A stretch of DNA of 42,734 nt from Cyanophora paradoxa CCMP329. Taxonomy: Eukaryota; Plantae; Glaucophyta. The position numbers and the translations under genes were made by a program. Position 1 is the stretch's first letter. Every line of letters begins with the position of its first letter. The stretch spans positions 1 to 42,734 of the forward strand of contig QPMI01000456.1 in the NCBI GenBank assembly GCA_004431415.1, read 5' to 3'. Under the pieces are notes generated by a model. That model searched no databases, was not told where the DNA came from, and worked only from the letters and a program-made list of their open reading frames with translations. Below, in pieces: positions 18,197-42,734 of this stretch.

Positions 18197-20056
18197 CGAT
18201 CTCAGCTACTTTACAAACGAACTACGAGCGCCAAGTTGGTGGTCTCGAGCTCGAGACCGATGGCCGCGTACCGAACGCTCAGACCGAGCGCCGCCGAGGT
18301 AGCCGGCGGTGCTAAAGCCTCTAGCTAGCTAGATCGCGTGCTCTAGCTAGTTCTCCGACCGCCGGGTGCCGCCGTTGGAGCCTTGCTAGTGTGGTGGTCG
18401 GACGGGTACCCCCCTGCGCGTAGTTCCCCCCGGGCAAAGTCGCCGGGGCAAAGTCGCCGGGGCAAACTTGCCGGGGCGAAGTCGCGGTTTCCGGAGCGCC
18501 GGATCTGGAGCTGTGTTCTGCTAGCGTCCGAAGTGCTGTCGGCGTGGCAAGCGGTCAAAGTGCTGTCGGCGTGGAAGCGTGGCACGTGGCGCTCGAAAAG
18601 GTGCGCCGGATGCCTTCTTTCCGCATCCATGGCCATGGCGGGGTTAAGCTGCGCGTGCGTCCGTGCGGCCTCCCTTGACAGATGCGTCTCTCAGGGATGG
18701 ATGCACACGAGGAGACGAAACGCGAGTTCGAAGAGAGCGGCCAGGAGCGTGCGGAGAAACGCCAGCTGGAGACTTTCCAAGACGCCGGGGCGAACTTTCC
18801 GGAGCGAAGTCGCATGAGCGCTATTAAGCGCCCGCGTGCCGGAGATGCGTATGATGCGAAGGACGCAAAGGATGAAGTACGCGCGGTCACACTTCATATC
18901 GCTACATCCAGCGTGCGTCTGCTCGCTCGCGCTTCGAATTCTTTGCTCGCTCGGCCACAAATTTAAACCACGCGCGCAGGAGATGCCCGTGGTCACTCTC
19001 GAAATCTCCAGCCCCGCCTGCATCGTCGTGCGGCCCGCCCGCCGGCGCCCTCTTGCTCGTTTTCTCAGACCAGCCGGCTTGCCATTGGCACAGGACCCGG
19101 AGCAGAGCACCTTCAAGCCCAAGCAGCGGCTGCCGGCAGAGGGCTGGCCATCATCGAGGCCACCCTGCGTGCCCACCAGCCCCGCACGGTCGCATTGCGG
19201 CTTGAGAAGTGCGCGCGGCTCCGAGCGCCGCCTCGTGCACTAAGTGCAGCCCGCAGCGCCCGCCTCGAGGACATTCCGGCATCGCTGCAGGATATCCTCG
19301 TCGAGAAGGTTGCGCACATCCACCTCGTCGGCGAGACCACGCTGCACCCGTTCCCAGAGGAGAACGCAGAGTCGGCCCTCGTCTATGCTACTATGTCGGA
19401 CCTTCGCAAGCGTGGGCTGCTCACGATGACCATGTCGCCCGAGGTGCGGCACGGCCATGGCCAGCTAGCGCCCTCCCTTTCCTCGACCCCGCCCATCTGC
19501 AACCCAGGTACCCTGGCTCGTGGACCCCCTCAAGTTCGTTTGCGGCGAGTTGCCACCCTACAACAAGATTTTCCAACGGTTTAACACCTTCATGGAGCAC
19601 ATCTACGGCCCCTTCCTGTGAAATCAATCAGGGCAGGCACTCGTTATGCACTACGGCGCCGACATGTAATGCGCTACCTCAGTAGCTCTGAAACCCTGAC
19701 TTCAATTAAATAGTGCACGCCTCCGCCTCGCCTATCGCCGGAGTCGACATTAGCAGTTGACGACGCTCAAATGGCAGGCGCGCGCTTTAGGCGAGAAAGC
19801 GCCATCGCTGAGCTACATGAAGCTCTCCACGCGTACATTCATGGGTTGCCGCTGCCCACAAGGGAGCCGACAAGTCGACAACCGGCATCTTCGATGACAG
19901 GTGCATGCACATGCAGTTTTGCGGTCAAACCAGAATTGAGGAGAAACAGATCAAAAACCAAACCAGAACCAAGCTCGCCAAGATGTTCGAACCAGGGTGA
20001 AAGTGTCCAAATGGATTCCTGGTGCGAGGGTATCCGGGATTAGCTATGTGTCACTT

Positions 20057-21820: not shown

Positions 21821-22293
21821 TCTGGAACGCAGTCCGACAGCGAGCGAACGAGCGCCGCCGTCTTTGGAGCCTTGCTGGTGCGTGGTCGAACGAGTACCCC
21901 CGGCAGGAAGTTCCCCCCGGGCAAAGCCGCCGGGGCAAAGTCGCCGGGCAAAGTCGCCGGAGCACTGTCGCGGTTTCCGGAGCGCCGGATCTGGAGCTGT
22001 GTTCTGCTAGCGTCCGAAGTGCTGTCGGCGGGGCAAGCGGTCAAAGTGCTGTCGGCGTGGAAGCGTGGCACGTGGCGCTCGAAAAGGTGCGCCGGATGCC
22101 TTCTTTCCGCATGCGCACCCATATATAGCGGCCTTGCGCGTGCGTCCGTGCGGCCTCCCTTGACAGTAGCGTCTCTCAGGGATGAATGCACACGAGGAGA
22201 CGAAACGCAAACTCGAAGAGAGCGAACAGGAGGTTGATTATGAGCTTGAGACGGAGGAAAGCGGCCCGGCGCGTGCGGAGAAACGTGCGCGAG

Positions 22294-22576
22294 ACACATA
22301 GTAAAATGCGGAGTTTTAACCCTCGGCTTAATCTTAATTGATTTTGTTGATATATCTCGTATATTCTATTTCAATCAATCGATAATCTGTGTATATCTTA
22401 TCGAATATTCAATTATTTCGATTATTTTGTATTCTTTTCGATATTTTATCGTAAATTTCTCTTATTTTCCGATTAGTCTTACTGAGTTAATCGATAATCT
22501 GTATATATTCCGAATAATATAACTGAATCTCAATTAGATCTTGCCTCTGGTTAAAACTCCGCATTTTACTATGTGT
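22294..22576. repeat. Terminal fold-back with 28-bp perfect inverted repeat arms
   Basis: ACACATAGTAAAATGCGGAGTTTTAACC (22294-22321) / GGTTAAAACTCCGCATTTTACTATGTGT (22549-22576). Confidence 0.9.
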
Positions 22577-22830
22577 GATTGGTCTAAAAGTTAATTGATT
22601 TAATCGATATTATATTCATGTACTTTCTCGATTAAATTTAATTAAATTTAAATTCATTTAATCGGAAATATATCGCTTAACTCGATTAAGATCCATATTA
22701 GATTCATTTGTTTAATAAAACAAATAGATCTCTTATTGAATCCAATCGTAATTATACATGAAACTTATATGATTTTATCATTGTTTTATTGAGTCTAAGG
22801 GGGACCCTTAGGAATTTAATGAATAATTGG

Positions 22831-22921
22831 GTGTCACAGGTGTCACAGGTCCATCCCATCGAAAGGGAAAATCACTCTTTATAGGGCTTGAGCTGGGATA
22901 AACCTGTGACACCTGTGACAC
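22831..22921. promoter_or_regulatory. Inverted iteron element 1 (candidate origin/protein-binding site)
   Basis: GTGTCACAGGTGTCACAGGT ... ACCTGTGACACCTGTGACAC, a 20-bp perfect IR built of 9-bp TGTCACAGG repeats. Confidence 0.6.
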
Positions 22922-24093
22922 ATACCATATTCAGTAAGGACCTCTTATATTGTGAAAATCTCAGTGTTAGTTGGTGTAGTTGATTCAAAAAATGCATTTT
23001 ATACTCTGATTCATTGTTATTTCCTGTGAAATTTGAGTCAACTCAACCACTTAGTCAACCCTTGCATTGAATTCGTAACAAAATCCATATACTATTACTA
23101 CTTTTACGATTAATATGAGTCAACCTTGAGTCCACTTTAATATAAATATTATATAATAGGGGAATCAAGGGAGATGCTTACTAAATGCAGTGTTAGATTG
23201 ATGGGATCATAGATGGGATCACAGTTATCGAAGCAATATAATATAGTTGAATATTCGATATCATAAGTTGATCGAAACGATAAGTATATGGTTATAAATC
23301 GCGATTTTTGAGTTATAATCGAATTTAATCGAATTAATTTTGAATTTCAAAACTCGCTTTAATCGTAATAGCGATCTATACACATTGAGATTCGTATATG
23401 TGATTGCAAGTTATTGTTATGTATGATATATGTGATTATATTCGACCGTCAGTGCATCGATTTGATAACTTGCTAGTGATCTATATTAAAAACTCACGTT
23501 TAATGGATTTTAATCGAATTTATAATCAAAATTCAAAATCGGTTTCATCGCGATTTGGAGTTACAGTTAGTGAAATTCCGATATGGCTCATAAGCGCTGT
23601 GACCGCCTTGAAATGCTCGATTTTATGACGTTTTAAGCGCATCGATTTGATAAGTTGGTGTTGAGATATCGTAGCAAACGTTAATATTGATTTTCTAGAC
23701 GGGTACAGCATTAATCTAGAAAAAACCGCGTTTTTTTTTTACTTTTCAAGTTTCACGGCGAACGAAGTAAAGGTTCCCGAGCGGATTTGAACCGCGTAGT
23801 TTTGAGTCAGAAATCAAGCTCTCTATTCTCTGAGCCAAAAACGGCTTACCACCAAGTCGACTCCTGGGCTAGTGTTTCACCAAGTCTACTATGGCAAGTG
23901 ACTTTTGCATCTTCAAACTGTTATATCTCATCACCAGATCATCAAAACGCAACGTTCTGCATATCGCTGTGAAGCGCTTGATAAGATCTACAAGACTATG
24001 TGTATATCATGTGCATATATGTATATCAGTCATACATATATTTGGAAAAAACGAGTTTTTGCCTAGCAAACTAGCTAGTTTTGGTCCTTTCTC

Positions 24094-25452
24094 TTAGTGT
24101 TCTCTGAGGTTTAGGGCTGTATATGACTCCTTAGTAGTCTGAAAGTCATTATACCATCTCTGGCTATTAACCTCAGAAAGTTTCTGTGTCCCTGCTATAG
24201 TGAGCTTTTTGAGTTCCCTGTTAACTTTCCCAGCCTTCTCCTTTCTAGCCTCTATCAAAGGCTTATCTGGGACTTCATTAGCAGCTTCTATGCCTTCTCT
24301 CCTTATAGCAGCATCAGCCCTGGCTTCCTCTTTAGCTTGCTCCAAGGCATCCACTGTAGGGTTTCTAGATATTCAACTGCATTCACAGGCAACAGCTCAT
24401 GGAAAGCAAACCTGTTTTCTATGATCTCACCAGTGGGACTCCTTAGCTTAAACTTAAAGCCTTCCCTACTATCAACAGTGTAAACCATCCTAGACCAATT
24501 GTTACCCTGTTTAGCAAAGGGGTTCTTCTCAACTTTCACTCTAACAAACATGCCAGGCTGCATGGTATCAAGGTAAGCTATTGATTTCTTGAATCTTTCA
24601 TCTTCTAATCCCACTATATACCTATAATGCTCCTCTGTAGTTTCGCCTGGCTTCATCTTAGTAGCTGAGTGAACTGTATTATTGTAATTATACTCAATAT
24701 CACCTAACACATCAAAGAATCTAGCTGTGTTATTAGCTATGCAATAGTTTGTGATCAGTCTCTTAATCTGCTTGTTAAAGGCTTCAATTCGACCTTGGCT
24801 TCTATGGTCAGCAGTTCCACTCACTTGGTGTTCTATGAATTTACTAGATAAATACTCCTGGAATATTCGATTTTGGAATTCACTCCCAGCATCTGATTGA
24901 ACTTTTACTATGGGTCTTGCCACTCTCATTTCAAGCTGTTTAAATGCAGCTAATGTAGTGAGAGCTGATTTATCCCTTATAGGTATGATATACCCAGTTC
25001 TCAGTGTAGATTCATTGCAGTCATAAAGGTATCATAGCCATTGTTTTGTTTCTTATAAGCTGGGAAAAAGAGCAAATCAATCACATAGGTATCAAGGGGT
25101 TGCCTAATTGGGACCATGGGATCTCTCTTCCTAGATATAGCAGGTGCATTGATCTGAACAACTTCTTGTTTTTTATAGAACTCTTGCAACTGCTTATAGG
25201 ATTCATCAGGTAACTCAGCCCTCATAGCTTGAAGCCCTTTGTAACCAGTTCTCACATCATAGAATCTCTTGGCAATCTTGCTGGTTTCTTTCACTGCAAT
25301 AGCAACTGGGATCTCTACTGGGACAAGCTCTTTCATCTCTGACTTTTTTACAATTCGAGATTCTCCTTTTCCTCCTTGGGAACTGTGATAGGCAGTAGGT
25401 TACCTTGTAGTTGCTCAGTGGTTCTCCTAACTATTCTTCCAGTTGCTGGCAT
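24094..25452 (-). CDS. Retroviral-type (rve, DDE) integrase, Polinton class; frameshifted
   Basis: 'FYDVRTGYKG', 'YVIDLLFF..NNGY' (D1), 'VQSDAGSEF' (D2), 'SQGRIEAFNKQIK' (E), 'YNNTVHSATKMKP'; spans ORFs 25001-25336, 24303-24929 and 24094-24354. Confidence 0.92.
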
Positions 25453-25455
25453 CTC

Positions 25456-28400
25456 TTAATTAAAAGGAACAGAATTAATACCATCTGGTAAGATGTATCT
25501 CTTTGCATCAAAGCAGTTTAGGGCAACCCTTCTACTCACAGTGTCTATTATTGTGTGATCTGCCCTTCTTTTCTGCTTTGCAGTCACAGTCTTGCTGATA
25601 CCTGCAAATAAACACTGTTTAAAATCATTAAATTGGAGTTCCTCAGTTGAAGTCCCAGAGAGCTTACTCCTCTCAATCTCAGCAGTTCTGAAACTGTAAA
25701 CTTTAGCTCTCAGACCCACATACTCCAATATAGCAGAGCCAGGCATTTCATTTTTGTATTTACCTGGGGTCATTCTGGAATCACCTCCAAGGTCTAATGC
25801 ATAGGATATATTCTCTATATCTTTTTGTAGGGTCTTAGATTCGATATATAGACAAAAGGAGTCAGTATCATGGAATAGTAACTTTGCTTTTGTCCATTGG
25901 GACCTTACAGTATCATAGAAGAACTTGTAGTTATGCAGTTTGGCTGCATCCAGAACATAAGCCCCAATAGCAACTGGCTTATCTAGCTTCACATGCTTTG
26001 TGTAAAACTCAAAGGCAACTGCTTTTTCGTTTATGGGACTTGTTGATTTCACCAATGGGGAGGCTGCATATTTCATAAACAGTTTCTCACTGTTTGCAAT
26101 CTTAACCACAGATCTACCTCTGCAAGATTCAATGCATTTCCCATAGATTGAGTTATTCATGAGTTTATAGAAATCAGCCTCGAATTTATTCACTGCTTTC
26201 CTTCTCATCTCAGTATTCAGCTCAATGTAGGGTTTCATTACAGGAGCCACAGTAAATGATAGGACCCTGTGAACCTTCTTTAGTTTCACCCCTTTGTCCA
26301 ACAGATACTGTAGAAGAGGCTCAGAAATCACATAGTTGGTCACAGAACCAAAGGTTGCAGTTAGCTTAGGGGTCTTATCAAGCTCTTCTCCTGAGAGATC
26401 TAATAGGCTCTTTTGATATTGTGATAATTCTGCATATTCTACTATTTTCTTGTTAATAATTAGGGGGAAATCACTGTGGTCTAGATATAGCCTAATTGGG
26501 TAATCCAGATCAACTTCCAGGAAACTGGATCTGTTATCTTGTGGGTTGAATTCGGTCTCCCATCTAAAATCACCAACTGGGATTGGCTGACTCAAACAGT
26601 AGCCATACAAGTTGTTAGCATCAAACAGCATTATATGGGAGTTCTCACCATCAGCCTCAGCATACCTACAAGGCATTGTTGCAAAGCCACCCCTGATTCC
26701 CCTCTCAACAAATTCGTATTGCTCTACATCACTTATAAGCTCTATTTTTGCCTTGGTGGTCCTAAGCATAGCATCCCAAGATAACCCAGGTGCAGATACA
26801 TAATGAACTGGGTCCAATCCATATACTGAGTGTGAAAGCCTTCTGAAAGCCTGGAATTTGCTCATTAACTCATCTACATCAGCAGCCCCAAAGTCCATAA
26901 AATTACTTGCATCAATGAACTTGTAAAGACCCCATTGCAATGAAAGGTATTGATCAAAGTTTTTCGAAAGGATTTCGATTCGCTTTTTATCACCCATGCC
27001 TGCTATTTTTCTGAAAATGAATGTCCCACAGTCATCCATTTGGTCAACAACCACTGCTACTTTTGTTTGCTTTGAGATTCTCCTATGGAGATTGCAGTTT
27101 CTGCATGCAGGTGCAATGTAATTACCTGTGTGGTGATCATGATCCCTGCATTTGAAGTTTTCCTTGGTGAACCTCTCACTGCAAAGGTAACAGTGTTTGG
27201 TAGCTCTGTAAATAGCCTTTTGCTCATCTGTGAGTTCATTCATGGGAATATTGGTGAACAGGAAATCGATTAGCTCTCTTGCTTTGGACTCCAAGCATTC
27301 AAACAGACCTCCCATTGGATCCTGACCCTCAAATCGAAACTCCTGAACATCTGCCCCAGTGACTATTCTAATGTTGACTGCTGAGACTTCCCTCTTGGAT
27401 TTCGATGCATCAATGGGGATGCTTCTATGTTCAATCTTGCAGTAAACCACAACAGGAAGCCAGACAGTTTTCCTGAGGTTTTTCAGTCCAAACTCTATTG
27501 TGGTGTCAGGCTTAGGGGTGATTCCCTTTGAGAGTCTCCAATCAATGCATCTGTTTGAGTCCACATGAGCAGTGAGTTTAGCCTCAGACCTGAATCGAGA
27601 TAAGCATGTATCACAGTAGTGTAACTTTTGATCCTTGGTTTTATCAAGGGCAACTCTGAGAAGTCTTGAAAGGGACATGATAGTAATATAGTGACCATTC
27701 CCTTCATCATCATGAATGAGCATTAGATTAATCTTTTGCTTTCTGCCTGGGTTGCTGGATTGATGTAGGGATATATAACATCTCCATCCATTCCAAATAT
27801 GTTTATGCTGATGCCTGCATTTTGAGATTCGAATTTATCAATGATTTCAGCATCACAAGGAACAGGGAATGGGATATTGTCGAAATTGAGAGCCAAAGGA
27901 TTGTATGTGGTTGGTGAGTATTTCCATTTGCGATATTGTGTAAGCTCACTTCTCTTGTGGGAATTTACATCTTTCCTATGGATCCATGCCAAAATGGCAT
28001 TTTCAAAGCAAGAATCATCAATATTTCGAATATTCACTGTGGCTCTCTTGGCTGCAATTGATTCTGGTGTTTTACATAGCAGCCACCAGTTGGGGCATAA
28101 CTCATAATAGCAACTCTTAGCATTTCGATTCTCTCCAATCGATAGCTATCAACAACATTCATCTGTTCCTGACACATTTGGGCTGCTTTATTCAGCTCAG
28201 TTCGAATATTTCTCGATTTGGTTAATTACAAAATAATCGCTGTAAATGTATTCGATATCCAAACCTGTGGATTGCTGACTTTTACGAACTTGCAGATAAA
28301 CGACAAGCGAACTTTGATTGCCCTGAATTGATCCAGACTATCTCTTAAACGTTTTGGTAGAGAGGTTGCAATTCTATCTAAATATTCAATCACATCTACC

Positions 28401-28695
28401 ACAACTTCCCTTCTGGCTCTGTATGTGAGCAGCGATATAATTCATTCATGGCTGTTCCATCTTCTGCCTCTGGTCTATTTGCCTCAGGCGATCGAGTTCA
28501 TCAAGAGTCTCAACTTTGTCATAGAGGTTATTGGCTTTTCTGGTTAATTTGCTAAGTGGGTCTGCCCCTTGAAATAAATCCGATTTCCCGGTCATATTCA
28601 GCCTCTGTGATTTTCATGGGCTGCATACAGTGTTCCCAGTAATCCCATAAGTTCCCATTTCTTCTCTCTAATGAGTCTGTTGCTAATTCGGGCAT
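25456..28695 (-). CDS. polB: Protein-primed family B DNA polymerase (pPolB), N-terminal part frameshifted
   Basis: Motif A 'LFDANNLYG', B 'KLMNNSIYGK', C 'FHDTDSF', plus 'YGLDPVHYVSAPGLSWDAML' and 'GLRAKVY'. OTU-like 'NIDDSCF...SINIF...NGHY', C2H2 finger and endonuclease VII 'CYLC..RDHDHHTGNYIAPACRNCN'. Start at 28695 is tentative. Confidence 0.95.
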
Positions 28696-28747
28696 AGTTC
28701 CTAACTTGTTCCTACTAAAAGGGAGGTTTTAAATGGGGAATCTGACA

Positions 28748-28796
28748 CAAAATTTGATGAAAACTACTTAAAGAAATATCTTCTATATATATAAAA
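28748..28796 (+). promoter_or_regulatory. Shared promoter motif (also 29604-29636, 30034-30085, 32503-32545)
   Basis: CAAAA(T/A)(T/A)TGA ... A(C/T)TTAA(A)G ... TATATATA shortly upstream of ATGs at 28802, 29656, 30105 and 32557 (TATA box degenerate in the last). Confidence 0.7.
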
Positions 28797-28801
28797 GGAC
28801 A

Positions 28802-29600
28802 ATGCAGAGAGAAATCGTATTGCCTGGAAAAGCTCAAAGCGGCTTTAATGTGCTTTGTGATCTGATAACTTCAATGATTATGTTGCTCTTGGAAGTAACA
28901 GGAAACCGCTCCCTCTTTGGGCAAAGCTTGCAAAATATGGATTAAGTGACTATGACCTGCCTCCAGAGTCTGAGCATTGCGCCTGTGATCATCCAATTAA
29001 AGACAATGCTATATTCTGCATGTTAATAAAAGATTGTGGTCATTGTTGGGAATTGCTGCATTTTACGATTTATTCCGAAGGGTGCCAGAGGTCAGATATA
29101 TGTGAAAGATGTGGAGATCGGCATAAAACGAAAGGATAATTTCTGTAATAAGTGCAGAATCGCTTTAAAGCAAGAAGAACTGGAAAGAAAAAGAGAACTT
29201 GAAAAACAAGAGGAAGCTCGAAAGAGGCAGCTTGAATTAGAAGAAAGAGAGCGAAGAGAGAGAGATTAGAACAAGAAAGAGCAAGGAATAAACATGCAGT
29301 TAATCTTTCCTGATTTGGTGCAACCAATTATTCCGAAAATGGATAATCTTCGCAGAGTGATATAGAGAGGTCAGAAGGGCAGATCTGCATTGATTGAAAT
29401 GTATGCAGAACTCAGTACAACAAATACATTGGTTGCTGGGTTCAGGTGCCTTATCTTAAAAAAGATATCGCAAAAGGATTAGATTGCAGATCGGAATAAG
29501 GACAAGAAAACATGGGAGACCTTGGAAATCGAACCATTTGTGCATTGCTAGGTAAGCATTTCAAACTATGTATATTGAGCGATTGGACAAAGAGGTTAGA
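28802..29600 (+). CDS. Cys-rich zinc-binding hypothetical protein, frameshifted
   Basis: 'HCACDHPIKDN', 'VIVGNCCILRF', 'CERCG..H' and 'FCNKCR', followed by an E/R/K coiled coil. Confidence 0.55.
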
Positions 29601-29655
29601 GAACAAAAAATGATTTAAAGAATTCTCTATATATATTAAGAGAGACAGAGGAAAA

Positions 29656-30000
29656 ATGCCACTCAGTGGAAGCCCAGAGAGAGCTATGAAGAGATACCAG
29701 CAAACTGAAAAAGTAGGCTCAAATCAAAAGTTTAACGAAAAAATAGCCACACGCTTAGGATCTATTCAAACCGATGATACCTATAGAGCAATGAAAATAG
29801 CAAGTTCATGTCAGCGAAGTATGCAGCCAATGCAGTCTGCTTTGTCAAGTATTTGTATGATGTCCCTTACTCAAATAGAGGGAGAAAATTGAAACATGTC
29901 TAAATTATTTTTCCAGCATATTACTAGGCTGGGGATATGCTGTTTATTCGCTGAATACCCATTCATCCTTTTGTATCTAACCACTCGATATATCATGTGA
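29656..30000 (+). CDS. Small hypothetical protein (frameshifted)
   Basis: 'MPLSGSPERAMKRYQQTEK' follows the promoter motif; end uncertain. Confidence 0.4.
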
Positions 30001-30104
30001 TAAATTTCGTAGGGATACTTTCTCGATTTCCAACAAAAAATGATTGGGGACCAAAACTACTTAAGAAAATCTTCTATATATATAAAGGGCCCCGATCGCT
30101 GAAA

Positions 30105-32338
30105 ATGAACGCAAACAGACTAAATCGCTCAAATCGCTCGCTAACTGGCCAGATCTGATGAGGAACTGTCCAAAAACATGATTATCCCAGGAACTGACAG
30201 CAAAGACCCTGTTTTCAAGCATAAGGGAGTGCTTGGTCCTGGAAAAGTATGAGGAACCTGGCAACATCAGTATGTATCTTGGGCATTCTGCTCTCAGACA
30301 ACATGATGGTTATTGATTTGATGATAGGAGGACTTTGAGAAATTCCGAGATATGTTTCCTGATGACTTTGATGCCAATCAGCCCATGGCAAAACTAAAAA
30401 GGCTATATGTTACTTCAAACGACCTGAGGAGTTCACTAAACTCAAAATTACCGATAAGGCTCCAGGCTTTAAAGCTTTGAAAAGGTTGACCTGAAACAAT
30501 CACTGGAACTGGACTTCTGGATTAATTAATGTTTGTCCAGTGTCAACAGACCTGGGTAATTGTCCATGGATGATACTGTGATTTCAATGAGCCTATGATG
30601 AGTTTAAAAAGTGGATTGCAGAGAACTATATCTATAAGAGTGATATACTGCTAGTGCTAGCTCAAATGATGAACTGGAAAAGAGTATTCTTAAAGAGCTG
30701 GTGGATATGGCTTTATGCATCCCAATATAATCTCTAAACTGAACTGGCTTTAGCTTTGATGCTGCAATAGGACTCATTGCCCATGCTGCAATGGTTCCCA
30801 TGAATCGAATAACTGGTATGTATGAAAGCCAAAGGAGAAGATAAAAGTATATGTGTCCACTACAGTGCATTGCAAAAAACGATTTATCTTCATTGGAATG
30901 CAATCTGATATCTTCAATCTCATTATAAATCCGCTGCTCTGGAGGCTCATTATGATGTCAGTCTTGTGTGCAAAGAGGTCCTACAACACACTTGGAGATA
31001 CTCCAAAGTCATGGTTCAAACTCAATACTGATATGGGATTTGGGAGCATGATGACACAAACCAAAGATTTACCTAGACATTAGTTGCCTTGTTGTCCCTC
31101 AATACTTGGCAGGGCTGTGCATTATAGTCAAGAGCTTTGAAGGATGAAGAGAATAGAACAGCTTTCGAAGAGAATCGAAAACATTAATTTCTATTGCCAA
31201 AAATCTTAACATCAGGATATCGCAAATCCTTCTGACTGATCTGCTCCCTCTGCTATGATGATGAGTTTTACGAGAAGATTGATACAGTTCCATATGTAAT
31301 TGGATTCGATAATGGTGTATTTGATCTGACAACTATGACTTTCAGAAGGTAAACTGGAAGACATGGTGAGCAAGAGTGTGGGTTATGATATACTGAGAAT
31401 GTAGACCCAAGAAAGTGAGCATCTCAATCAGATTTATAGAGAGATTGTAGATGATCCAGCAGAGCGAAACTATCTTCTGGCATTATTGCATTGCTTGAGT
31501 GGATCAACAAATCACAGAAGTTCTACATGTGGACTGGTGCTGGTGCTAATGGTAAATCACTTGTTCAGGAATACTGCAACAGATATCTGGGGCTTATTAC
31601 GCCTCTCGAAATATCCTATTGGACCAAACCTAAGAAGAACTCATCAGATGCTACCCTGAACTTGCCAAACTCCTGGAAGCGACTTGTATTCAGTAATGAG
31701 GCTGAAGATGGTGATAACTGCAAATCTCCAAATTAGGAGTCACAGGTGGAAATGAAATGACTGTGAGAGCCTTGTTCAAAGATCCAGTTATCCTTACTCC
31801 AATGTTTCAGTCTACATTACAACCAATGACAATTTGACTATAAACAACCAGCTTTGCAATTCAGAAGGCTTTCATACCAGAGATTTAACAATATTTTCAG
31901 AGAGAAGCCAGAAGCTGGTCAAAAGAAAGCTGACCAACTCTGTTCACACTTCTACAATGATGATGAGTATAAGATGGCTCACATGAAGATTTACTGGATA
32001 TGTGGAAGAACAAGAGGTTGAAGAGATCTTAAGAAATCCCAATCGATTATTGACAAGGAATAACTTATAGCTGAAAATGATAAGATTGGTGAATGGCTTA
32101 GGATAATTTCGAAGTTACACATAATGCAAACGACTTTGTTTCGAGTGATATCATTTACAAATCATACAGAAGTGTCGATGATAAAGTTGAATGTGTTTCT
32201 GTGATGAAGAGAGTAAGGGAAATCTTCAATGTGAAATCAGAGGTTAAACGAATTCAGGGAACCAGAGCAAGGGGCTACATTGGACTTCGAAAGATAACAA
32301 GGGTTCAAGAAGACAATGGAGAGGATGTTGAATATTAA
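30105..32338 (+). CDS. Prim-Pol-like primase + D5-like SF3 helicase, multiply frameshifted
   Basis: Walker A 'MWTGAGANGKS', Walker B 'KRLVFSNE', 'TGGNEMTVRALFKDP' and D5_N 'PYVIGFDNGVFDLTTMTFR'. N-terminal 'VID(F)DD...YFKRP...TGTSGLINVCP' is reconstructed across frameshifts. Confidence 0.85.
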
Positions 32339-32398
32339 ACAAAACGATTTATGATTGAAATGTATATGTAATTTTTATAGCCTTACTGGAAATGGTGT

Positions 32399-32489
32399 TG
32401 TTCACAGGTGTCACAGGTCCATCCCATCTAGGGGGCTATAAAGAAAAATGACCAGGGGACGATAAAAACCTGTGAACACCTGTGACACC
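32399..32489. promoter_or_regulatory. Inverted iteron element 2, directly downstream of the helicase gene
   Basis: TGTTCACAGGTGTCACAGGTCCATCCCATC ... ACCTGTGAACACCTGTGACACC. Confidence 0.6.
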
Positions 32490-32556
32490 TATCGAAAAAG
32501 ACCAAAATTTGACAAGAATACTTAAGGCTTACTTGATTGTGTATAGTGAAGACAAA

Positions 32557-32776
32557 ATGGCAAAATCTTGATGAGATGACCATGACTGAGTTAGATAAAT
32601 GCATAAAGCATGGAGATATAGGGGCATATATCGAAATGTCACAGAGATTGATAGGTTACAATATGTATGCAGCAAAACCAAAGAGAAATAGATCAGTAAA
32701 CATTCACATAACTGTTTCAGTGTCTGAGAATGCAAACAAAAAACAACAAAAGCATATTTACAAAAGTTATCTGTGA
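32557..32776 (+). CDS. Small hypothetical protein (frameshifted)
   Basis: ATG preceded by the promoter motif; overlaps ORF 32537-32776. Confidence 0.35.
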
Positions 32777-32867
32777 CTTGATTGATTGCAAGTATAAAGC
32801 CAATTCCTTTGTATATATTTTTATAGCTGCCTCAGTGGCATACTGAGACCGCTTTTTCTCAATTATC

Positions 32868-33113
32868 TTATAGACCTGGGGGTCCATTGCTACTATCAGT
32901 TGGCAAATAATATTTAATCGGTCTCCCTCTGGGTCTCTGCTCCTCTTTTTGGGCTTTTCTGCGATAATAGGATGCCAGGGCTTGCTGCTTTTTATACTCT
33001 CTATATTCTGGGTCCTCTCTATATCGTTTCTGCATTGCTAGAATGTGTCTTAATAGACCCTCAGTAACAGGTTCATCACTGGTAAACTCGATTAAACTAA
33101 TAGTGTCCTCCAT
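32868..33113 (-). CDS. Small basic DNA-binding protein with AT-hook
   Basis: 'YREDPEYREYKKQQALASYYRRK...RPRGRP'. Confidence 0.65.
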   Translation of the reverse strand: MEDTISLIEFTSDEPVTEGLLRHILAMQKRYREDPEYREYKKQQALASYYRRKAQKEEQRPRGRPIKYYLPTDSSNGPPGL

Positions 33114-33436
33114 TTATATTCCCAGAGAAAACGTTTTCTGCTGGCAGAGAACTTCTCCTTGGATACTCCTGTTGCTCATATGTATACTCTGTGGGGTCTG
33201 CTGGCATTGACTCCACAGAAACTGTTGACTCCTTCTCTCTCTTGCTTCTGAGGCATTATCCTCATTATCTGACATCTCAAACTCTATGTTGTGTCACAAC
33301 ATCCACTGTGGCAATTGCTCACCACATGCAGACTGAACATCTCAATAAACTTTCGTATTATGTCCATGTCTCTAATAAAACAGAGAAAATTAAAGCCAAA
33401 CTCGTCTTTTATATACTGTTGGGGCTACTCCCTTTT

Positions 33437-34118
33437 CTACTTCAGCTTTGGTGGCACCAGGTTCAATGGTTCCCTTTGGGTCTTTGTTTTCATTTCATCT
33501 ACTGCCTGCTCATCAATTTGGTTCTCTTTCTTAGCAATAAACTGTTTATCTGGGACACCAGTGATACCCATTTTGAATACTTCCTTTCGAAGCATCTCCT
33601 TTAGCTTGGCTCTCTCTTTCTTCTCAGTAACATACTGCTCCAAGGCACTTGATTTGGCTTCCAGATCTTTGAGTTTAGCAGTCATCTCATCCCATTGAGC
33701 TTTGGGAATTCGATGAATATTTTGAGTGGGAGCAGTCTTATATGTGACTTCACCAGCCATAGACTGGATTACCTTGTCTGATTCCTTACTAAGACCTTCA
33801 CCTTTGCGAGCCAGTGAAAGATCTTGCAAGCCTAAACCTTTATCATCAGCAGCACCAATAATTCGCCTGGCACCCTCAGCAACAGCTTCATTTTGAGGCT
33901 TCTGGTGAGATGTTGAGTTGGTCACTGGTTGAAGCCTGTGGGGCTTTGTCATCGACTGATTCCTCATAGGCAGCATTGAGGGTCTTCTTCTTGCTGTGAG
34001 GGCTTCACCTCATTCATACCATTGAATTTCATTGGTTCAGTTTAATGGATCCATTGTTTCCACCACCTGAATAGCCAACAGCCCCAGCTGGGATCCCTAT
34101 CTTTCGTTTGGGAGGCAT
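33437..34118 (-). CDS. Hypothetical protein (possible virion core), frameshifted
   Basis: Starts MPPKRK (34118); C-terminal ORF 33437-33976 with coiled coil. Confidence 0.5.
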
Positions 34119-34169
34119 TGTATCTTTATTAGAATGAGAGATAATTTTATAAACCGCGTTTATATCGCA

Positions 34170-34911
34170 TCAATTTATTGCTATGGACTTGGCTTTTCAC
34201 TTCTTTGGGGCTTCCTCTTTCTGGTGGTTTCAGTTCATCTTCTTTCTTTTTTGGCTTCTGTGGAAGCGAGGAAATGGGAAATCTTTCACAAGCTCAGCTT
34301 TATCTACATAGTATTTAACTGAGTAGTTTGCAGAGGACCAAATAATATACTGATAGGAGTGAACATACTCTTCAAACATCTTGTAAAATCCTCTTTATTT
34401 CGCATTATATTGTATTCTTCCTCTATGGCTTCAGTTCTTTGCGATTTGCAGCACTTAAAACATAGCATAGTCCGAATTAACTCGAATAGTCGAAGAGACT
34501 TTCCTTAGCTTTTGTGTGATGCAGATAATGGATATTTTCGAATGGCGACCTCTGGAATACAGAGATCCATATTTTATCCGAGTTAGGTCTACATCTCATT
34601 ATCGATTAAATCATCTAAAACCACACATAACTGGTTAACAGGTTCACCTTTTTCTATTTTCTCTTGCCTTCATCTAGCAATTTAGCAATGTAAGGGGCAT
34701 CCCATTTTCCCAGTTGCAATGTTGCACTTTATCCCAGAAATGATTGAAGCTGGTTCCACTCACAACTAATACAACATCAATCTTTTTGGCATCATGCAAC
34801 TGCTTCAACCAATACTTTACAGCTTCTGATTTACCAGTTGCTGATTTCCTATTGCTAACGAAATGGTGGTTCTATCATTTCACCAGCCACAAATTCATCC
34901 AAATCATTCAT
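34170..34911 (-). CDS. A32/FtsK-HerA-type genome packaging ATPase, frameshifted
   Basis: Reverse-strand reading gives Walker A 'KSATGKS', 'VVLVVSGT', Walker B 'VVLDDL', Arg-finger 'SRGRHSKISIICITQ' and 'IRVNSD'. Confidence 0.85.
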
Positions 34912-34974
34912 TGTTGTATATCTTTCTAAATAAAGACAGATAAAAATAATGCAGGGACTGAATATCGTAACAAT

Positions 34975-36327
34975 CTACAAATTTATACGCGTAACCATCT
35001 TTGTCCAAAATTATAACTAATGCATGAGAGCGCGAACATTAACATCGATTACCTTATCTGAAGGCATGTAGAGGGTGAGGAATGAAGAGAGGAATTTGTT
35101 AAATCAACATAACCAGACTGGGCAATATTTCGAATTGCCTTTCTCCATCAAGCAGAATGGGAGTCCTGAAAGGACATAGCGATCAGCAACCTTATCCATG
35201 TTAGAGCATTTGAAGGCATCAGCAATTAGCTCAGCACCTTTGAGTAGGGAAATTGGCTCAGTGGCAAAAAGTCGCTGTCCATTTATTTCAGTGTGAATGT
35301 ATGTCTTTGGAGTTGGCATAGGTCTTAAGAACACTGTGGGAGCCATTGGATTTGTCAACAGTTTTATCACGAACTGAAACAAGCAGAGCATATACAAGAC
35401 CTGAGATTTGAGAGAGGTTAATTCGATTGGGTTGGGCATTGCCCTTGGCAGGGAAAGCACTAGCATCTACAAATCCAATATCAAGGGAGGGAATAGCCAT
35501 GCCAGTAGTCTTTAACTTTTCAATTACAGTAGCGAAAAGCTCATCAGAAACATTAATAGCATGCATGTAAAGGCGAGGAGAAGTAATAGAAATACAGGAG
35601 TTGTTGCACCAAGACTGAAAGTTGTGATTTTTGACCAACATGGGCAAGTGTGCATTAGCAGTATCCAAGACCATCATCTTTGTCTTATCAGCAACTGTCC
35701 CACCAACAACAGGGAGAGAGCGACCACCATAGGAAGTTTCAACATAACCCTTTCCAGCATCCTTAAACCAAACAGTAACAACCATTTCACCAGATAAAGC
35801 ACCAAGGGGAAGGTAGTGATTTAGCCAAGGCACAGGAATTTCAACGAAAAATGAGCCACCAAGGCGGTTGGTTCCATGAGCAGGGATGCCATGAACCATG
35901 CCCATTGATCGCTTCTTTTTAGCTAGTTGATCCTCCGAATAATAGACCAGGGGGAAATGAGCAAGGAAATCAGATGGAATATGGTAGGTGTAAGATCCAT
36001 AGGTAATTTCAAGTCGCTGAACTAAAGCACCAACTGGGCGAGTGTATCCATTGCGAACTAGGTCAGTATCACCAGCAAAAGTGATGGCTGGAAGGTCGAA
36101 AGCAAGTTCGAGTTTTCCACAGAAATTGTAGCGAGGTAGCTTGAAGGAAATGCGATTTCCAACATTATTCTCAAAAGTATTGCTGGGATTCACAACAACT
36201 AGAACTGGCTTAGACTTGGATTCGAGACCAAGCATAAGGGAGTTATCCAGGAAAAAGGCTTTCGCCTCTCTGGGGTTGTTAGGGCTTCTTTCAGCGAAAG
36301 TCTTTGAAGAGTGGAAGTGATATCCAT
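34975..36327 (-). CDS. Major capsid protein (double jelly-roll), frameshifted near the ends
   Basis: 'RISFKLPRYNFCGKLELAFDLPAI...YTRPVGALVQRLEITYG', 'FVEIPVPW..YLPLGAL', 'INGQRLF'; beta-rich, ~450 codons, lies between the ATPase and penton genes. Confidence 0.75.
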
Positions 36328-36374
36328 TATATTCTCTTTTTATACTGCAACATAAAAAATCTACCAATGATCCT

Positions 36375-37382
36375 TAATTTATGCGAAGTTGTAATAACTG
36401 GATAGGAAGGGTGAAGCTGTGACATTCGCATCTTAAGTATTCATAAACTGGGTCCCAGCTGGCTCATCACCATAGCGAATTTCAAAGGTAGATGAACAGG
36501 TTGACCCTCAAAATCAATTGGTTCATTAATAGCATTTACAATATCAACCGAGAAAGTGGATAATCCAACCTTTTATTATAGTATTTGTAAAGTGGTGAGC
36601 TTCTGTTGAATTGTAAACAACATGCTCACCATAGTCTTTATCAGGGACCACTATTTTGTGAAAGTAACCAGTCAGAAGACCATCCCCACATTGCACCAGA
36701 TCACCCAGCTCCTTTACTCTCACAAACAAAACACTGTCCCTGGTCTTCTCAGGCTCAAAAGAAGATATAATGCCATTCACTCGACCACCAGTAAAGATTC
36801 CATCAGTGAGAGCATCATAGACCTGTGATTGGATTGGGGAATTACCATATCTTCCAGGATCAAGACCCAGCAGTCTAGCTGAACTCAACAGCTTTTGGAT
36901 TGTTTGTTGGCTTGGGTTCACAGCTACTGAGAAAGCCAGTAAAATGGTACTGCTGAGTGGAATATAATTCGTTTCAGTGATTCATCCCATTTGCAGCGAA
37001 TGGATGGTTGGGGATTTCTGCCTTCGAATTTAGAGTTAATTACATTCACCAGTTGCTGGTGGCTTTGGATGGGGGTGTTTCGACTTATAATGAATTGTTT
37101 CCATTGTTCATAGTCAGCAGCTGGGCGAACTGTTGGAATTCCTGAGCTTCCAGCTCCAGGAGTTTGTTCAGAATAATAAATGCTAAATGCATTGTCAACT
37201 GTCACATCTCCTGCTTTGGTTTCACCACTCACCATAGGGATACTGTTATAAAATTCGGCTGAGACCAGTCTCACAGCCCTCACATTCTCATAACTACTGG
37301 GGAGTCTAGCCACAAAGCTTGATGTGGGACCATCACCAGAGATTGTATTAAATGAGCTAACCTCGATGTAATCCACAGGCAT
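36375..37382 (-). CDS. Minor capsid (penton) protein 1
   Basis: 'YIEVSS...SSFVARLPSSYENVRAVRLVSAEFYNSI' and 'VLFVRVKEL...FHKIVV...GEHVVY'; ORFs 36924-37382 and 36544-36921. Confidence 0.75.
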
Positions 37383-37411
37383 TCTTCTTTTATCTATATT
37401 TATATATTAAA

Positions 37412-38331
37412 ATGAACCGGCTCGTTAATATTGATAGCAGGGATAGAAGCCAAGGACAAAATGAAAACTCTTACAGGGTCACCCTCACAAAGTAGAGAGA
37501 CCAAGGGAATGTAGGGTTCTCTATGCAGAGATTCCAAACAGTATCTATAACAGTGTGGGAACTGATCATCTAACAGTTCAGTTTAATTACCAAGATGGTT
37601 CATATAACCAAGTGATCACACAACAAGTGTATCCCCTTCCCAGTGGCTACATCAATCAGGGTCATTTTGGGGTCACACACCCTTATAATTATGGGCTGAA
37701 CTATTCAAGCTTCCAAACCATTGCAGGCAAAACAGTAGCTTTTGAGTTCAAGATATTCTACAACCCAACAACCTATAAAGTGGAGTTTTACAGTAACCAT
37801 GAGTTTCGTTTTATTGCAAGCAACCAGAGAATAGGGAAGCTTTTGGGTGTAAGTTCTACTGAATACACCACTGGGTATTATAGCACTCCTCCTGTTGGTG
37901 GATCTCCCTATCGACCTGAGAACCTTTTAAAGTATGATGGCAAACCTATTACACCTGATCACCCAGCATGGGGAATCACCTTCTCAGGACCCAGACTCTC
38001 CTCTAAGCCCTTGCAATATTATTTTGACAGCAGGAAGATGTCTGATATGAATGCTGAGCAGTATCTGTACATGCATATTAAAGAGCTGCCCCTTTGCCAG
38101 CAGACACAATATAATTCCAAAATCGCAACCACAAAACCAGGGGCATCCTTAGATTGCAATTGAGTAAGATATAGGGGCTATGTTTACCATAGTGGTGAAC
38201 ATGCAATTTATTCAAATAATGACAGAAACCTGGTGATAAGGGAACTCACAGTTGAGTTTAAAGATTACTTTGGTGAACTGATTGATATGAATGGAATCGA
38301 TAATTCTTTTCAGTTGGAGTTTATCGAATAA
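37412..38331 (+). CDS. Minor capsid (penton) protein 2
   Basis: 'MNRLVNIDSRDR..NSYRVTL...YAEIPNSIYN', 'YLYMHIKEL' and C-terminal 'FKDYFGELIDMNGIDNSFQLEF*'. Confidence 0.8.
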
Positions 38332-39864
38332 AGGCACCTGTAAAGTCAACTCTCATTGTGGGAGCATTCACATACACAAGGGGATAAATGCGAATATACT
38401 TATTCTCAGAGAATAACCTATGTAAAAAGCATCCTTGATGCTGAGAGGAAATCCACTCAATAGAGCCACATCACCTGAGTTGTGAGCATTGTTAATGTTC
38501 TCACAGACATATATTTTGTTTTGCCCATCTGATCGAATAAAAGACCAGTTGATCCCATCAGTGGATGTTGCCACATTGAAAGTCTTAATAAAAGCATTGG
38601 TGTCCCCTGATCCATAGGCAATCACAGAAGAGAGTTCAAAAGTATATGGAAAAGCAACTTGAAGGTATTCAGTGGGGGTTTCCCATATCTGCAGGAGCAT
38701 AGGCTCCAGCTTCCCAGCCAAATGCTGAAGGTCTAGCCATGAAAGGCTCTTTACCAGTCACAGAGGATGAGGCAGTGAAGGCATCATCTGCAAGCTGATA
38801 CCAATTAGCATCCAAAGGAGGTGATGTAGTGAGAGTGGATGAAATGTAAGCCTTTGTAGGGTTCTTTAGTTCATAGTTTGCTACTAAAGGCTGCAAAGCT
38901 TATTATCATATCATTGTTTGCTGCTATGTAGTTTCAGTGAAGCAAGCATATCTGGGATTTTAGAAGTGTCATCCAGGGAGCTTACTATATGATTTGGAAG
39001 AGGTACTGATAGCCTATAGTATCTCCCATAATCCTGATCATAGTTGTAGGGTAACAACTCCTCCATCTTATCAAGGGCAGAAAGCTCACTTGCAGCCATG
39101 AGCATGTTAATCAATGGGCTTCCATCTGTTGAGGCAATCCATGAGAGAATGCCCCAGCTGTTTACAGTCTCATAAGCATAACCCACATAATCAGACTCTA
39201 AATGTGGGTCCACCTCTCCACAAGAGATGCTTATTACTATTATATCATCATCATCACTGTAAATCTTCTTTGCATGGCTGTAACCACACACACTGGGATT
39301 ATTGTTTCCCGAAATGGCACCATCAATGAGACAGACATATACTCCCCGATTGAAATCAACAATGCTTACAGGAGAGAAATATGTAGGAGCAGCAGAAGTA
39401 GCCCTAGCAGCAATCTTACAAGGCATAAAGTTGTAATTGTTGTCATTTGTGATAAATATTGGTTTCATATTCTGAGTATCAAAGGATGTATCACAATGTC
39501 CTTTAGGGAATCCTGTATTAGTGATTCACCAGTAACTGAATTGATTGCAGTCTCCAAGGGTCCCACATCATACTTTGTATTAAAAGGGCATTTTCGATGA
39601 TATTTCGAGGATTTGCGAAAATCAAGGGCAGTTGAGTTAGGTAAATATTGTGTAAATCGTTTGCTGTCAGTTTAGGTTCACCTGGTTTATCAGGATGCCT
39701 TATATTCAAACCATTGCAATGATCCCACCAGTGGAAGTTCCACTCACAAGATCCACAAGATCGATTATTCTCCTGCCAGTTCGATTTTCGATTTCTTTGA
39801 GCAGCCTGGTTATGATAATGCCCCTTGCACCTCCCCCTGAAAACTGAAACGACTTGAGAGGCAT
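38321..39864 (-). CDS. Patatin-like phospholipase probably fused to an F5/8 type C (discoidin) domain
   Basis: 'FSGGGARG', 'GTSTG', 'ARATSAAPTYF', 'IDGA..NNP', then 'FTASSS...EYLQVAF...VIAYG...IKTFNVATSTDGINW'; several frameshifts. Confidence 0.8.
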
Positions 39865-39907
39865 CTTTTACTTATCAGGAATTTTATAAATCCATATAGT
39901 AAAAGCC

Positions 39908-42734
39908 ATGAGCTTCAATTACCCACCCAATCTAGAAACCATTCAAGATGATAATGCAAGCAGCACCAAGCATGTGAACTTTGATAATATTAAAGTAAAG
40001 GGTTCAGTTTCAATTGACCACAGCTCTGATAATTCATCAAAGACTCAATCAAGGGAGCATGCTTTATCTGTGAATCAAACCGATCCAGATAAAGAGGATG
40101 TCAGTGTAGCCTTTAGTTTGGGTAATGTGAAAGCAAACCAAGTGGCAGAGATCAAAGCAACAAGAAGGAGACCTAGGAAACTGAAAACCAGTGGCACTCA
40201 CCAGATATACCTTCCAGGTTCGATAGTGGTCGATTGATTTTCAATGTTCAAGATGAGCAGGGCAAACAGAACACAGCTTTGCGAATTTACAATGAGGGCA
40301 GCACTGCAAAAGCTGAGGTCCCCCAAGTATTGCAAGTGGGTCCCATTGCCAATACAAATCAGGTCTCCTACACAAATGATGTCTACCCCAAGGATATTAC
40401 ATATGACTTTGCAAGAATGAGCCTTTTGGTTTTTCTTTACTCCAAAAGATGTCCATCAAAAAAAGCCATCAATTACAATCAACAGTAGCCCCAGTCAACC
40501 AGTAGCAATCCATTTACATCCTGATTTAGTCGAAATGGATAGGCACCTTTTGCCTTTGTATAGCAATGTGAAAGACCTTGGAATTCGAACCAGGCAATGG
40601 CGAAATATCCATGGCAGCAATGTGTATGCAAATGGAGAGAAGCTTGTAGTGAGAAAACTCTAAGGGAAATCATTGAGCATTATGGTCCCAATGGACCTAC
40701 TGTCCCATTCCCTATTCCATTTCCAATGGACCACCCGATTAACACCAAAGAAACAGCCTGGAAGAGAATACACAGCAACTGAAGATGTAGCCTTTGGGCA
40801 GCATATTGTTAGTTGGGAGCAAGTTCGCAATAAACCTATAATTGAACCAGAAAGCAAATAGATGAGCAGTATTTACCTCCTGAAGTCGATATATTAGAGC
40901 TTGATGAATATCAATTCGTTCCAGATGAGGAAGAGTATTTACCAGATGGTTTTGACCCACAAGAATATGAATATGATCAGTTTGACCCCAATGAGGAGGA
41001 GATACTACCAGATGGCTTAGATCCCCAAGAGTTGAGTATGAGCAGAACTATGAACCTGATGAGGAGTATTTGCCAGATGGGCATGATCCACCAGCTGTTG
41101 ATTATGAGCAACCTTATGAACCCATGAGGAATTATTACCAGATGGATTTCGACCTGAGATCTGGGAGTTCTTTCCTGATTATGAACAAATTAATAATAAA
41201 CCTGCAAAGTATCCCCAGAGGATCACAATCATGATTGGGATGAGATCTTAGGCAAACCTCAAAAGTATCCACCAGAAGGATCACAGGCATGATTGGGGTG
41301 AAATTGATGGGATTCCAACTGAGTTCCCACAAGCAACATGAACATATTGGGATGAGATCAATGACCAACCAGAATTTGCAAAGGTGAGCCTCTTGATAAC
41401 TTGGGGTTTCTCTTTACCAGACTTGCAATTCCCTGAAAGATCTTTTTGAATGAACACTATGTATGTGAATGGGACACTTGCGAATTCAGCTATGAGAGGA
41501 CCACTTCATATTAGGACATTACCAGGCTCTTTGAAACCCCACCACCACCAGGAGCAACCATACCAAATATCTTTGTGTCAAGCTACATGGAGGCTGACAT
41601 TCCCACAGATACATTCAGAGTCCCAACAGACCCAGCAACCTACCAAAATTACAACTCTGCTATACAGGTTCATGTAGCAGATGTAAGCAGCTTAGATGGC
41701 TCAAGACCAATGATAGTTTTCAGTCGAGATAAGTATTCCTACATTCCCATAGTGGGAACTGCAAATGATAATTATGGAAGGGCAGAGCTTGCATGGATTA
41801 AAACAGATTATGGTGGGGTTCTGGAAGCCAATCAGAGGATGGCTGCAAAACATACACAATGAAAATATTTCGAGAGTGTCACAGAGGATTATTTAGAAGA
41901 GCAAGGATATATTGATGAAGGTGAACTCAACAAATATTCTTTCTCTTTTTGATCAAAAATGACACAAACCTTACAGTCACAAGTAACATACACCAGTAAC
42001 CTTTATACAAGTAACATTTTCACAAGTAACCTATGGGCAAGTAATATTTACGGAAGTAATCTAGAAGTCGACTATTTGACTGTGAATATTGAAGCAAATC
42101 TACCAATCATCCTACATCCAATGTAGTTTTAGGTTGGATCGATAACCACACCCACACAAAAGATGAAATAACAGATTTTGCACATGAGCATTTATGGGAG
42201 CATATAACAAATCCACCATTAACCTTCCACCCAGTTCTCATGAGCATTTATGGGAGCATATAACAATCCACCATTAACCTTTCACCTGATCCACACAGTC
42301 ATGATTATTCCCAGATCACAACTGCAATCACAGACACCCTTGGAGTGAAATCGATCAACAACCAGTGTTTGCACAGTTGAATGCAATCGGAAAATGTTTT
42401 CAATGGAGTCACACTTTACAATCGAGTAATACACCTGAAAGATTGTTTGAATGATCATTATGTTAGTCTCAATGGGACTTTTTACAGGTCAAACAGGCAC
42501 TCCAATGGGGAACTCTTGCAGTAAGATTACCCAGGATCCAATGTAAATGGAGTTTATGATGGTGATTTTAATGTAGGGTAAATGATACTTTCCCCAGTAT
42601 CTATGTTACGAATTATCACCCAGGTGAAACAGGACAAGTAGCCGATTTTTTCAGCAGCTATTCAAATAAACGTTACAGATCAAAGCGCATATGATGGAGC
42701 AAGACCTAAAATTGTGTTCACAAGGAGAAAGTTG
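39908..42734 (+). CDS. Large repetitive fibre/spike-like structural protein (fragmented, runs off the window)
   Basis: Acidic 'EE(Y/I)LPDG.DP' repeats (~40920-41160), 'TSN(I/L)Y' pentapeptides (~41975-42065) and HxH repeats 'HEHLWEHITNPP' (~42145-42310). Confidence 0.6.

Follow-up and report, generated by a model that had tools for sequence, protein, structure and literature searches.

The window analysed here, the whole 42,734-nucleotide (nt) stretch of contig QPMI01000456.1 from Cyanophora paradoxa CCMP329, contains an AT-rich element, from position 22294 to the window end, that had been read from its sequence alone as an endogenous polinton-like virus (PLV) of a possibly undescribed lineage. 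We find that the element is almost certainly a real member of a capsid family already catalogued in C. paradoxa. The new parts, both absent from that sequence-only reading, are the loss of exonuclease motifs from its DNA polymerase (pPolB) and a pair of iteron arrays. On balance we favour the view that this is an integrated PLV of the Cyanophora family whose proofreading-less pPolB is probably aided by a Prim-Pol/superfamily 3 (SF3) helicase loading at facing TGTCACAGG repeats.

Pfam, PHROG and other profile scans were run on open reading frame (ORF) fragments of the window; most genes are frame-broken. The features that carry the argument are these, with E-values in brackets after the profiles:

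22294 to 42734, no strand: endogenous PLV, left end and most of the genome, delimited by the GC step and public contig coverage; right end and target-site duplication lie past the window
25456 to 28694 (start approximate), minus strand: Maverick-type pPolB; PF03175 (1e-13) plus EndoVII
30100 to 32338 (start approximate), plus strand: Prim-Pol, inferred from motifs, fused to a D5_N/SF3 helicase, heavily frame-broken; D5_N (8e-5), phrog_1156 primase (5e-4)
22831 to 22921, no strand: palindromic array 1, predicted origin; two TGTCACAGG repeats facing two inverted ones, z -8.5
32399 to 32490, no strand: palindromic array 2, predicted origin; facing TGTCACAGG repeats about 60 nt past the helicase stop, z -2.7

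Published work is cited from the available parts of its sources (PMC10120064, PMC12220804, PMC8502044, 10.64898/2026.10.13.758929, 10.64898/2026.06.19.733378, PMC11161782, 10.1101/2023.08.22.554363, PMC12344493, PMC11071296, PMC4234260 and PMC9371898).

Loss of proofreading motifs in pPolB

The pPolB gene retains an unbroken ORF of 792 amino acids (aa; 25456-27834), in which palm motifs A, B and C and the vOTU histidine are intact. The vOTU cysteine motif lies in the upstream piece, and a putative terminal protein (TP) and an EndoVII insert are also present. Of the exonuclease motifs, ExoI and ExoII carry substitutions, and an in-frame deletion has taken out the roughly 90 residues leading up to ExoIII. 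We compared this protein with the best 120 of 675 homologs. One of these, P0002 (47% identical), shows the same loss of ExoI, II and III. Among the 119 others, which are 33-39% identical to the window pPolB, all three motifs are kept in 110 and all three are lost in none, and the span from FIDS to LDP, 34 aa in the window protein, is 122-176 aa in the 111 of the 119 where it could be measured. In a set of 81 pPolB loci the exonuclease span could be measured in 41 and was never as short as 34 aa; the shortest spans, of 72 and 79 aa, both come with ExoI and ExoII. These 81 loci contain no relatives of the element's major capsid protein (MCP), pentons, ATPase, helicase or patatin, and single-sequence scans of IMG/VR with pPolB and a penton gave no match.

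Exo motifs have been described as conserved across taxon groups in integrase-linked pPolBs (Jeong 2023), and mavirus and PLVs have been reported to have each, independently, lost the exonuclease together with gaining a helicase (Krupovic 2024). Judged by its sequence, the window pPolB likely fits this exonuclease-helicase rule as a third independent case, and we infer its independence because the polymerase is Maverick-type in sequence and carries the EndoVII insert. In the literature searched we found no account of this motif loss in exonuclease-less polinton pPolBs or in Cyanophora viruses.

Two known groups share parts of this arrangement. Mavirus-like virophages also combine an rve integrase, an exonuclease-less pPolB and a separate SF3 helicase, a likeness that would have been derived independently. 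They differ from the element, whose Maverick-type pPolB has part of its exonuclease deleted and contains an EndoVII insert. Its helicase, moreover, is apparently fused to Prim-Pol, no protease is visible in the window, and a phmmer search with the MCP finds no virophage MCP. Mavericks and adintoviruses (Polintoviricetes) share rve and a vOTU-bearing pPolB with the element, which differs in having no Exo motifs, no protease that we could see, an unrelated MCP and an extra primase-helicase.

Facing repeats as predicted replication origins

We know of no described start of replication in PLVs and virophages that carry primase-helicases. In the window, the array pattern occurs at two sites only, and in 0 of 100 shuffles. 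Arrays 1 and 2 have an exact 27-nt repeat in common and are joined by a 64-nt inverted match at 78%; the similarity ends at the array edge, with no relic of a wider terminal inverted repeat (TIR). At array 2, facing iterons lie immediately downstream of the helicase gene, the arrangement of pRN1 and of Staphylococcus aureus pathogenicity islands (SaPIs). The pRN1 origin is reported as a stem-loop of about 100 bp beginning 54 bp past orf904, and SaPI iterons as facing each other just past rep, where they are bound by a winged helix. More generally, the loci of pRN1 ORF904, SaPI PriRep and phage VapE-D5 resemble the window in that, no more than about 60 nt past a primase-SF3 gene, there is a palindrome (about 90-100 nt) built on short repeats that face each other, and the phage loci contain an 18-mer identical to that of the window arrays. 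The element differs from these replicons in being eukaryotic, integrated and linear, in having a pPolB, and in a second array near its terminus; an origin role is here a prediction. Barth 2026 labels palindromic repeats in Fig. 6, including on a QPMI01 contig. We found no iteron origins described in PLVs or virophages in the literature searched, although figures or supplements on bioRxiv may already mark these palindromes or place the family.

The 18-mer is present in 30 IMG/VR loci. In 11 of them it lies 9-335 nt from an ORF for a VapE, D5 or DUF5906 primase-helicase, and in 10 of these 11 it is downstream. A permuted control pattern was present in 11 loci, none of them beside such a helicase gene (Fisher p 0.02 for 0/11 against 11/30). 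Because the 18-mer adjoins SF3 genes in this proportion of loci and the control does not, the arrays are likely replication origins of the pRN1/SaPI type, as predicted from sequence comparison. One locus, L099 (Prim-Pol-D5_N-DUF5906), has an identical layout of two repeats facing two, over 72 nt as against 74 nt in the window; its array sits upstream of its gene, unlike array 2.

Several observations weigh against an origin role. In the remaining 19 of the 30 loci, no SF3 gene occurs up to about 340 nt away, and many of the 19 are collagen-type coding repeats. Arrays with the 18-mer on both strands are not significantly enriched (14/30 against 2/11 in the control, p 0.15), the control consists of one permuted pattern, and in the test set 29 selected ORFs were scanned, not the full number. 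The 11 phage helicases, most of them of VapE type, are distant from the window helicase, and their C-terminal domains did not align with it. In the window itself array 2 is the less perfect copy, as its z of -2.7 indicates, and profiles support the D5-like SF3 helicase, while its probable C-terminal winged helix and its Prim-Pol domain have no profile match.

Three both-strand arrays among the 19 remaining IMG/VR loci are close to contig ends. Two loci, L082:3001-3087 and L099:2932-3018, belong to one 80-kb IMG/VR contig with two facing TGTCACAGG arrays 36 kb apart, only one of which adjoins the Prim-Pol-D5 gene, echoing the two copies in the window. In L085, L089, L091, L094-L096, L098, L101, L102 and L108, TGTCAC iteron arrays stand straight after VapE-like helicase genes. 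The occurrence of TGTCAC arrays in diverse viral contigs suggests a widespread origin family.

The placement of the arrays could also be explained if the Prim-Pol/SF3 block (about 28.8-32.8 kb) were a separately mobile replicon that reached a subset of copies together with its own origin or, in a variant, if the whole rve-pPolB-helicase block were a transpoviron-like unit fused to the capsid module, with the arrays marking its borders and the two replicases not cooperating. Such a nested mosaic, in either form, is the main rival; it seems to us unlikely but worth weighing. The arrays do flank all replication and integration genes and leave the capsid module outside, and they are related by the inverted match described above. 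Barth 2026 reports second replicases bracketed by repeats, among them those of a QPMI01 contig that has an AEP-only unit besides two transpoviron-like units, and the helicase slot is variable in the family (D5_N in 40 and PIF1 in 34 of 156 glaucophyte PLVs; Bulzu 2025 Table S6, columns counted by hand). However, the similarity between the arrays stops at their edges, leaving no relic of a wider TIR, and a site right after the helicase stop, together with the phage parallels, favours a working origin over a scar. An exonuclease-less pPolB would, moreover, be expected to travel with its helicase (Krupovic 2024).

A catalogued capsid family

The identity of the element rests first on its MCP. In a phmmer search against 1.84e9 representatives the MCP had four matches, of which two, P0001 and P0122, are true and both are Cyanophora-type; P0123 and P0124 were rejected as spurious. 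The MCP is thus not recognisable as Mavpol. It is 53% identical to P0001 (EukProt, Cyanophora paradoxa), which is row 106 of Table S2 in Bellas 2023, and about 141 of about 170 N-terminal residues (~83%, an eye count only) are the same in row 107, also from C. paradoxa. The identity to P0001 exceeds the 25% used for Bellas clusters 21 and 29, between which this comparison does not separate. Table S4 of the same study lists 366 MCP hits in C. paradoxa in these two clusters, as "new" and with no group name, and in the columns counted by hand neither cluster has a Mavpol label. No relatives of the MCP were found in IMG/VR or JGI metagenomes, and no meaningful sequence match in PDB.

A check of the MCP by structure had been proposed in the sequence-only reading. 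Double-jelly-roll (DJR) capsids rank first in the fold searches (Foldseek and VIA), with a VIA match of Z 9.0 and rmsd 3.9 over 144 aligned residues that covers the N-terminal barrel only. Against this stands the quality of the AlphaFold models, which are poor (pLDDT 34 and 37). With such a model, the mavirus and Sputnik MCPs rank under D13 and PBCV-1. Atlas placed the MCP at 0.97 to Capsid_N clusters, with a recognition value of 1791, under 2300, and the fold matches in favour of an NCLDV-like MCP (nucleocytoplasmic large DNA viruses) are weak. An affinity to NCLDVs, as read from HHpred, was rejected as non-diagnostic. Unrelated PLV MCPs commonly have NCLDVs as their top hits, and for that reason we assign the family to no class.

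The other genes and gene pieces of the element are:

24094 to 25336, minus strand: rve DDE integrase in three frame pieces; PF00665 (1e-3), phrog_956 (2e-10), IS481 (4e-10)
28800 to 29900, plus strand: Cys/His-rich and coiled-coil ORF pieces; no significant profile match
32537 to 34230, mainly minus strand: small unassigned ORFs, from the ORF listing and Pfam scan
34233 to 34911, minus strand: A32-like packaging ATPase, frame-broken; PF04665 (0.008), with Walker A, Walker B and GRH pieces in three frames
35020 to 36327, minus strand: double-jelly-roll MCP; homolog P0001, fold searches and Atlas Capsid_N
36444 to 37382, minus strand: probable penton 1, inferred from motifs; no profile match
37412 to 38331, plus strand: probable penton 2, inferred from motifs and divergent from penton 1; no profile match
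38324 to 38899, minus strand: F5/8 type C (discoidin) domain, probably fused to patatin; Pfam (2e-6)
38900 to 39864, minus strand: patatin-like phospholipase, frame-broken; matches of 6e-9 and 1e-4
39908 to 42734, plus strand: probable fibre or tail-like protein with acidic repeats, truncated by the window end; weak PHROG tail match (0.046)

The mosaic gene set claimed from the sequence alone is therefore borne out by profiles or homology for rve, pPolB, the D5-like SF3 helicase, A32, the MCP, patatin and discoidin. For Prim-Pol, the two pentons, the fibre and the joining of patatin to discoidin there is no significant profile match; we take these to be such from motifs visible in frame-broken pieces. 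We likewise presume the tail of the integrase to be SH3-like, from a motif; no chromodomain was seen in the integrase. The two pentons have no significant similarity to each other by BLAST, and a search for an intact helicase homolog gave none. The Cys/His-rich pieces at 28861-29266 (plus strand), upstream of the helicase, may encode a zinc-finger protein and match no family. Within the probable fibre, an acidic Pro-Asp-Gly repeat tract (40846-41400) differs in length among copies.

As the sequence-only reading had stated, no maturation protease is recognisable in the window: the ORF fragments, with their broken frames, have no such Pfam match, and the element extends past 42734. The same absence appears in Table S6 of Bulzu 2025, where, in columns counted by hand, nine protease profiles are found in 0 of the 156 glaucophyte PLVs. 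Besides the helicases given above, that table has A32 in 139, lipases in 89, rve in 85, PF03175 in 49 and Prim-Pol in 8. The PLVs of C. paradoxa (clusters 21 and 29 of Bellas and the glaucophyte set of Bulzu) are like the element in having an MCP, rve, pPolB, D5/Prim-Pol, A32, a minor capsid protein, a lipase and discoidin, and neither protease nor tyrosine recombinase; the discoidin-patatin fusion is described in glaucophyte PLVs by Bulzu 2025, and adintovirus-like relatives had already been seen in C. paradoxa (Starrett 2021). We found no difference in gene content; in the parts available, the published accounts do not mention exonuclease loss or iteron arrays. The claim of a possibly undescribed lineage fails because the MCP sits in a catalogued family with the same gene content, including the absence of a visible protease. 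The hybrid gene set is already published, and the family is catalogued yet unnamed and unplaced. MCP kinship and GC content, rather than any host gene, point to C. paradoxa or a close relative as the likely host.

Two further groups were compared. The Nucleocytoviricota-like PLVs Zoravirus and Zephyrvirus (Bellas and Sommaruga 2026) resemble the element in a Capsid_N-like MCP signal, rve, pPolB or primase-SF3, and a lipase. They differ in HUH endonuclease, Mriya48 and VLTF2/3, none of which was detected in the window by general Pfam on fragments, without dedicated profiles and with the right end beyond the window. Membership of Aquintoviricetes, marked by a DJR MCP, a minor capsid protein and A32 with no protease, is possible: the MCP and A32 are supported in the element, and the pentons are seen by motif only.

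Left boundary and state of the copy

22294 to 22576, no strand: terminal segment, likely the start of the left TIR; its first 28 nt recur as a perfect inverted copy 283 nt on, at 22576

The claim of an AT-rich viral block in a GC-rich genome holds: mean GC is 39.3% in the element, which stays AT-rich up to the window end, against 62.1% in the flank, and it falls from 0.66 to 0.34 across 22251-22350, with a sharp step at 22294. The terminal segment has a fold z of -8.5. Public sequencing runs of one organism contain up to 0.45 of the sampled words, and their contigs span 30 of 30 bins in both alignments. At 22294 one host-side contig ends and one virus-side contig begins, and an X19 contig over 22294-22697 consists of the terminal segment joined to downstream DNA. 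It counts against the junction that none of the contigs listed bridges 22294 by 31 nt on each side. We therefore call the host-virus junction likely genuine rather than proven.

It could instead be a chimeric join, with viral or contaminant DNA misassembled onto host DNA at 22294. Besides the missing bridge, the left flank is a multi-copy host repeat (15746-16055, 18427-18747 and 21913-22232, the virus sitting at the end of the third copy), and one X19 contig runs from 22294 into different GC-rich DNA, whose sequence is absent from the window. Yet the position of the join coincides exactly with the conserved terminal motif, at which an independent contig likewise begins, flank and element are both present in the same runs, and hundreds of such insertions have been published for C. 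paradoxa (Bellas 2023). We consider a chimera very improbable.

The frameshifts raise the question of whether the copy has decayed. Over 28783-29286, contigs of X4 and X6 show 2 changed letters relative to the window, but 10 gaps. Many contigs have far more gaps than substitutions, the gaps recur across separate runs, and a flank contig (21314-21630) has 0 differences. Because gaps outnumber substitutions while the flank contig matches exactly, we attribute the frameshifts largely to assembly error; Bellas 2023 found such frame breaks often to be assembly artefacts. The pooled short contigs mix many copies, from which the window copy is not separable. Contig depth over 28819-32828 is lower than over the capsid module, and we do not use it as evidence, since contig depth is no copy number.

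The observed/expected (o/e) ratio of CpG is 0.07-0.41 in the coding blocks, with an excess of TpG and CpA, against 1.1 in the host. The non-coding terminal region (22294-24100) is by contrast CpG-rich (o/e 1.39) and has many small palindromes. The depletion with TpG/CpA excess agrees with published evidence that in C. paradoxa both repeats and viral genes are CpG-methylated, and the window copy is probably silenced by this host methylation. Long methylated residence is also what a decayed relic, with genuine frameshifts and unable to replicate or package, would lead one to expect; almost all genes are broken, and some copies have small deletions. The pattern of gaps and exact flank contigs, the 792-aa polymerase ORF with its intact catalytic motifs and the artefacts found by Bellas 2023 speak against a relic, which we regard as improbable.

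The runs guessed to be RNA, X19 and X20, give scattered pieces that may be DNA. A 1151-nt X20 contig of depth 31.5, well above other X20 pieces, represents a divergent copy over the discoidin gene (38153-38955) and may be a transcribed paralog or DNA.

In the rest of the window no tRNA genes were found. A near-identical tandem duplication at about 6045-8437 (period about 1455-1460 nt) may be recent or an assembly artefact, and a 46-nt inverted repeat (96%; 11047-11092 and 12702-12747) flanking about 1.7 kb is a possible non-autonomous DNA transposon. A host gene with introns (1752-4300, minus strand) has no significant Pfam match; from its motifs we take it to resemble CC2D1/Lgd (DM14 plus C2).

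Proposed replication and its meaning

We propose, at slightly better than even confidence, that the virus replicates as follows. The rve integrase would have placed the linear genome in the host repeat. Once the virus is activated, the C-terminal winged helix of the helicase would attach to the iterons; the enzyme would then melt the AT-rich spacer and begin priming, with loading modelled on pRN1 ORF904 and SaPI Rep as currently understood. Synthesis by the TP-vOTU-palm pPolB would be primed at the ends and continue at low fidelity on helicase-unwound DNA. Packaging by A32 would fill a DJR capsid that has two pentons and a fibre, with no maturation protease involved, and the patatin-discoidin protein may aid entry.

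More tentatively, and with less than even confidence, a glaucophyte-restricted lineage with a giant-virus-like capsid may represent a third independent loss of proofreading with gain of a helicase, caught part-way, in which a complete phage-type replicon (Prim-Pol/SF3 and TGTCACAGG origin) was captured and its origin copied to the terminal region.

If true, the arrays would give PLVs their first internal replication origin defined by sequence, and an iteron common to phage origins would allow binding to be tested directly and supply a motif with which to search thousands of catalogued elements. An exonuclease-less Maverick-type pPolB beside a helicase would also test the proposed exonuclease-helicase trade-off independently, in an alga that can be cultured and has hundreds of copies.

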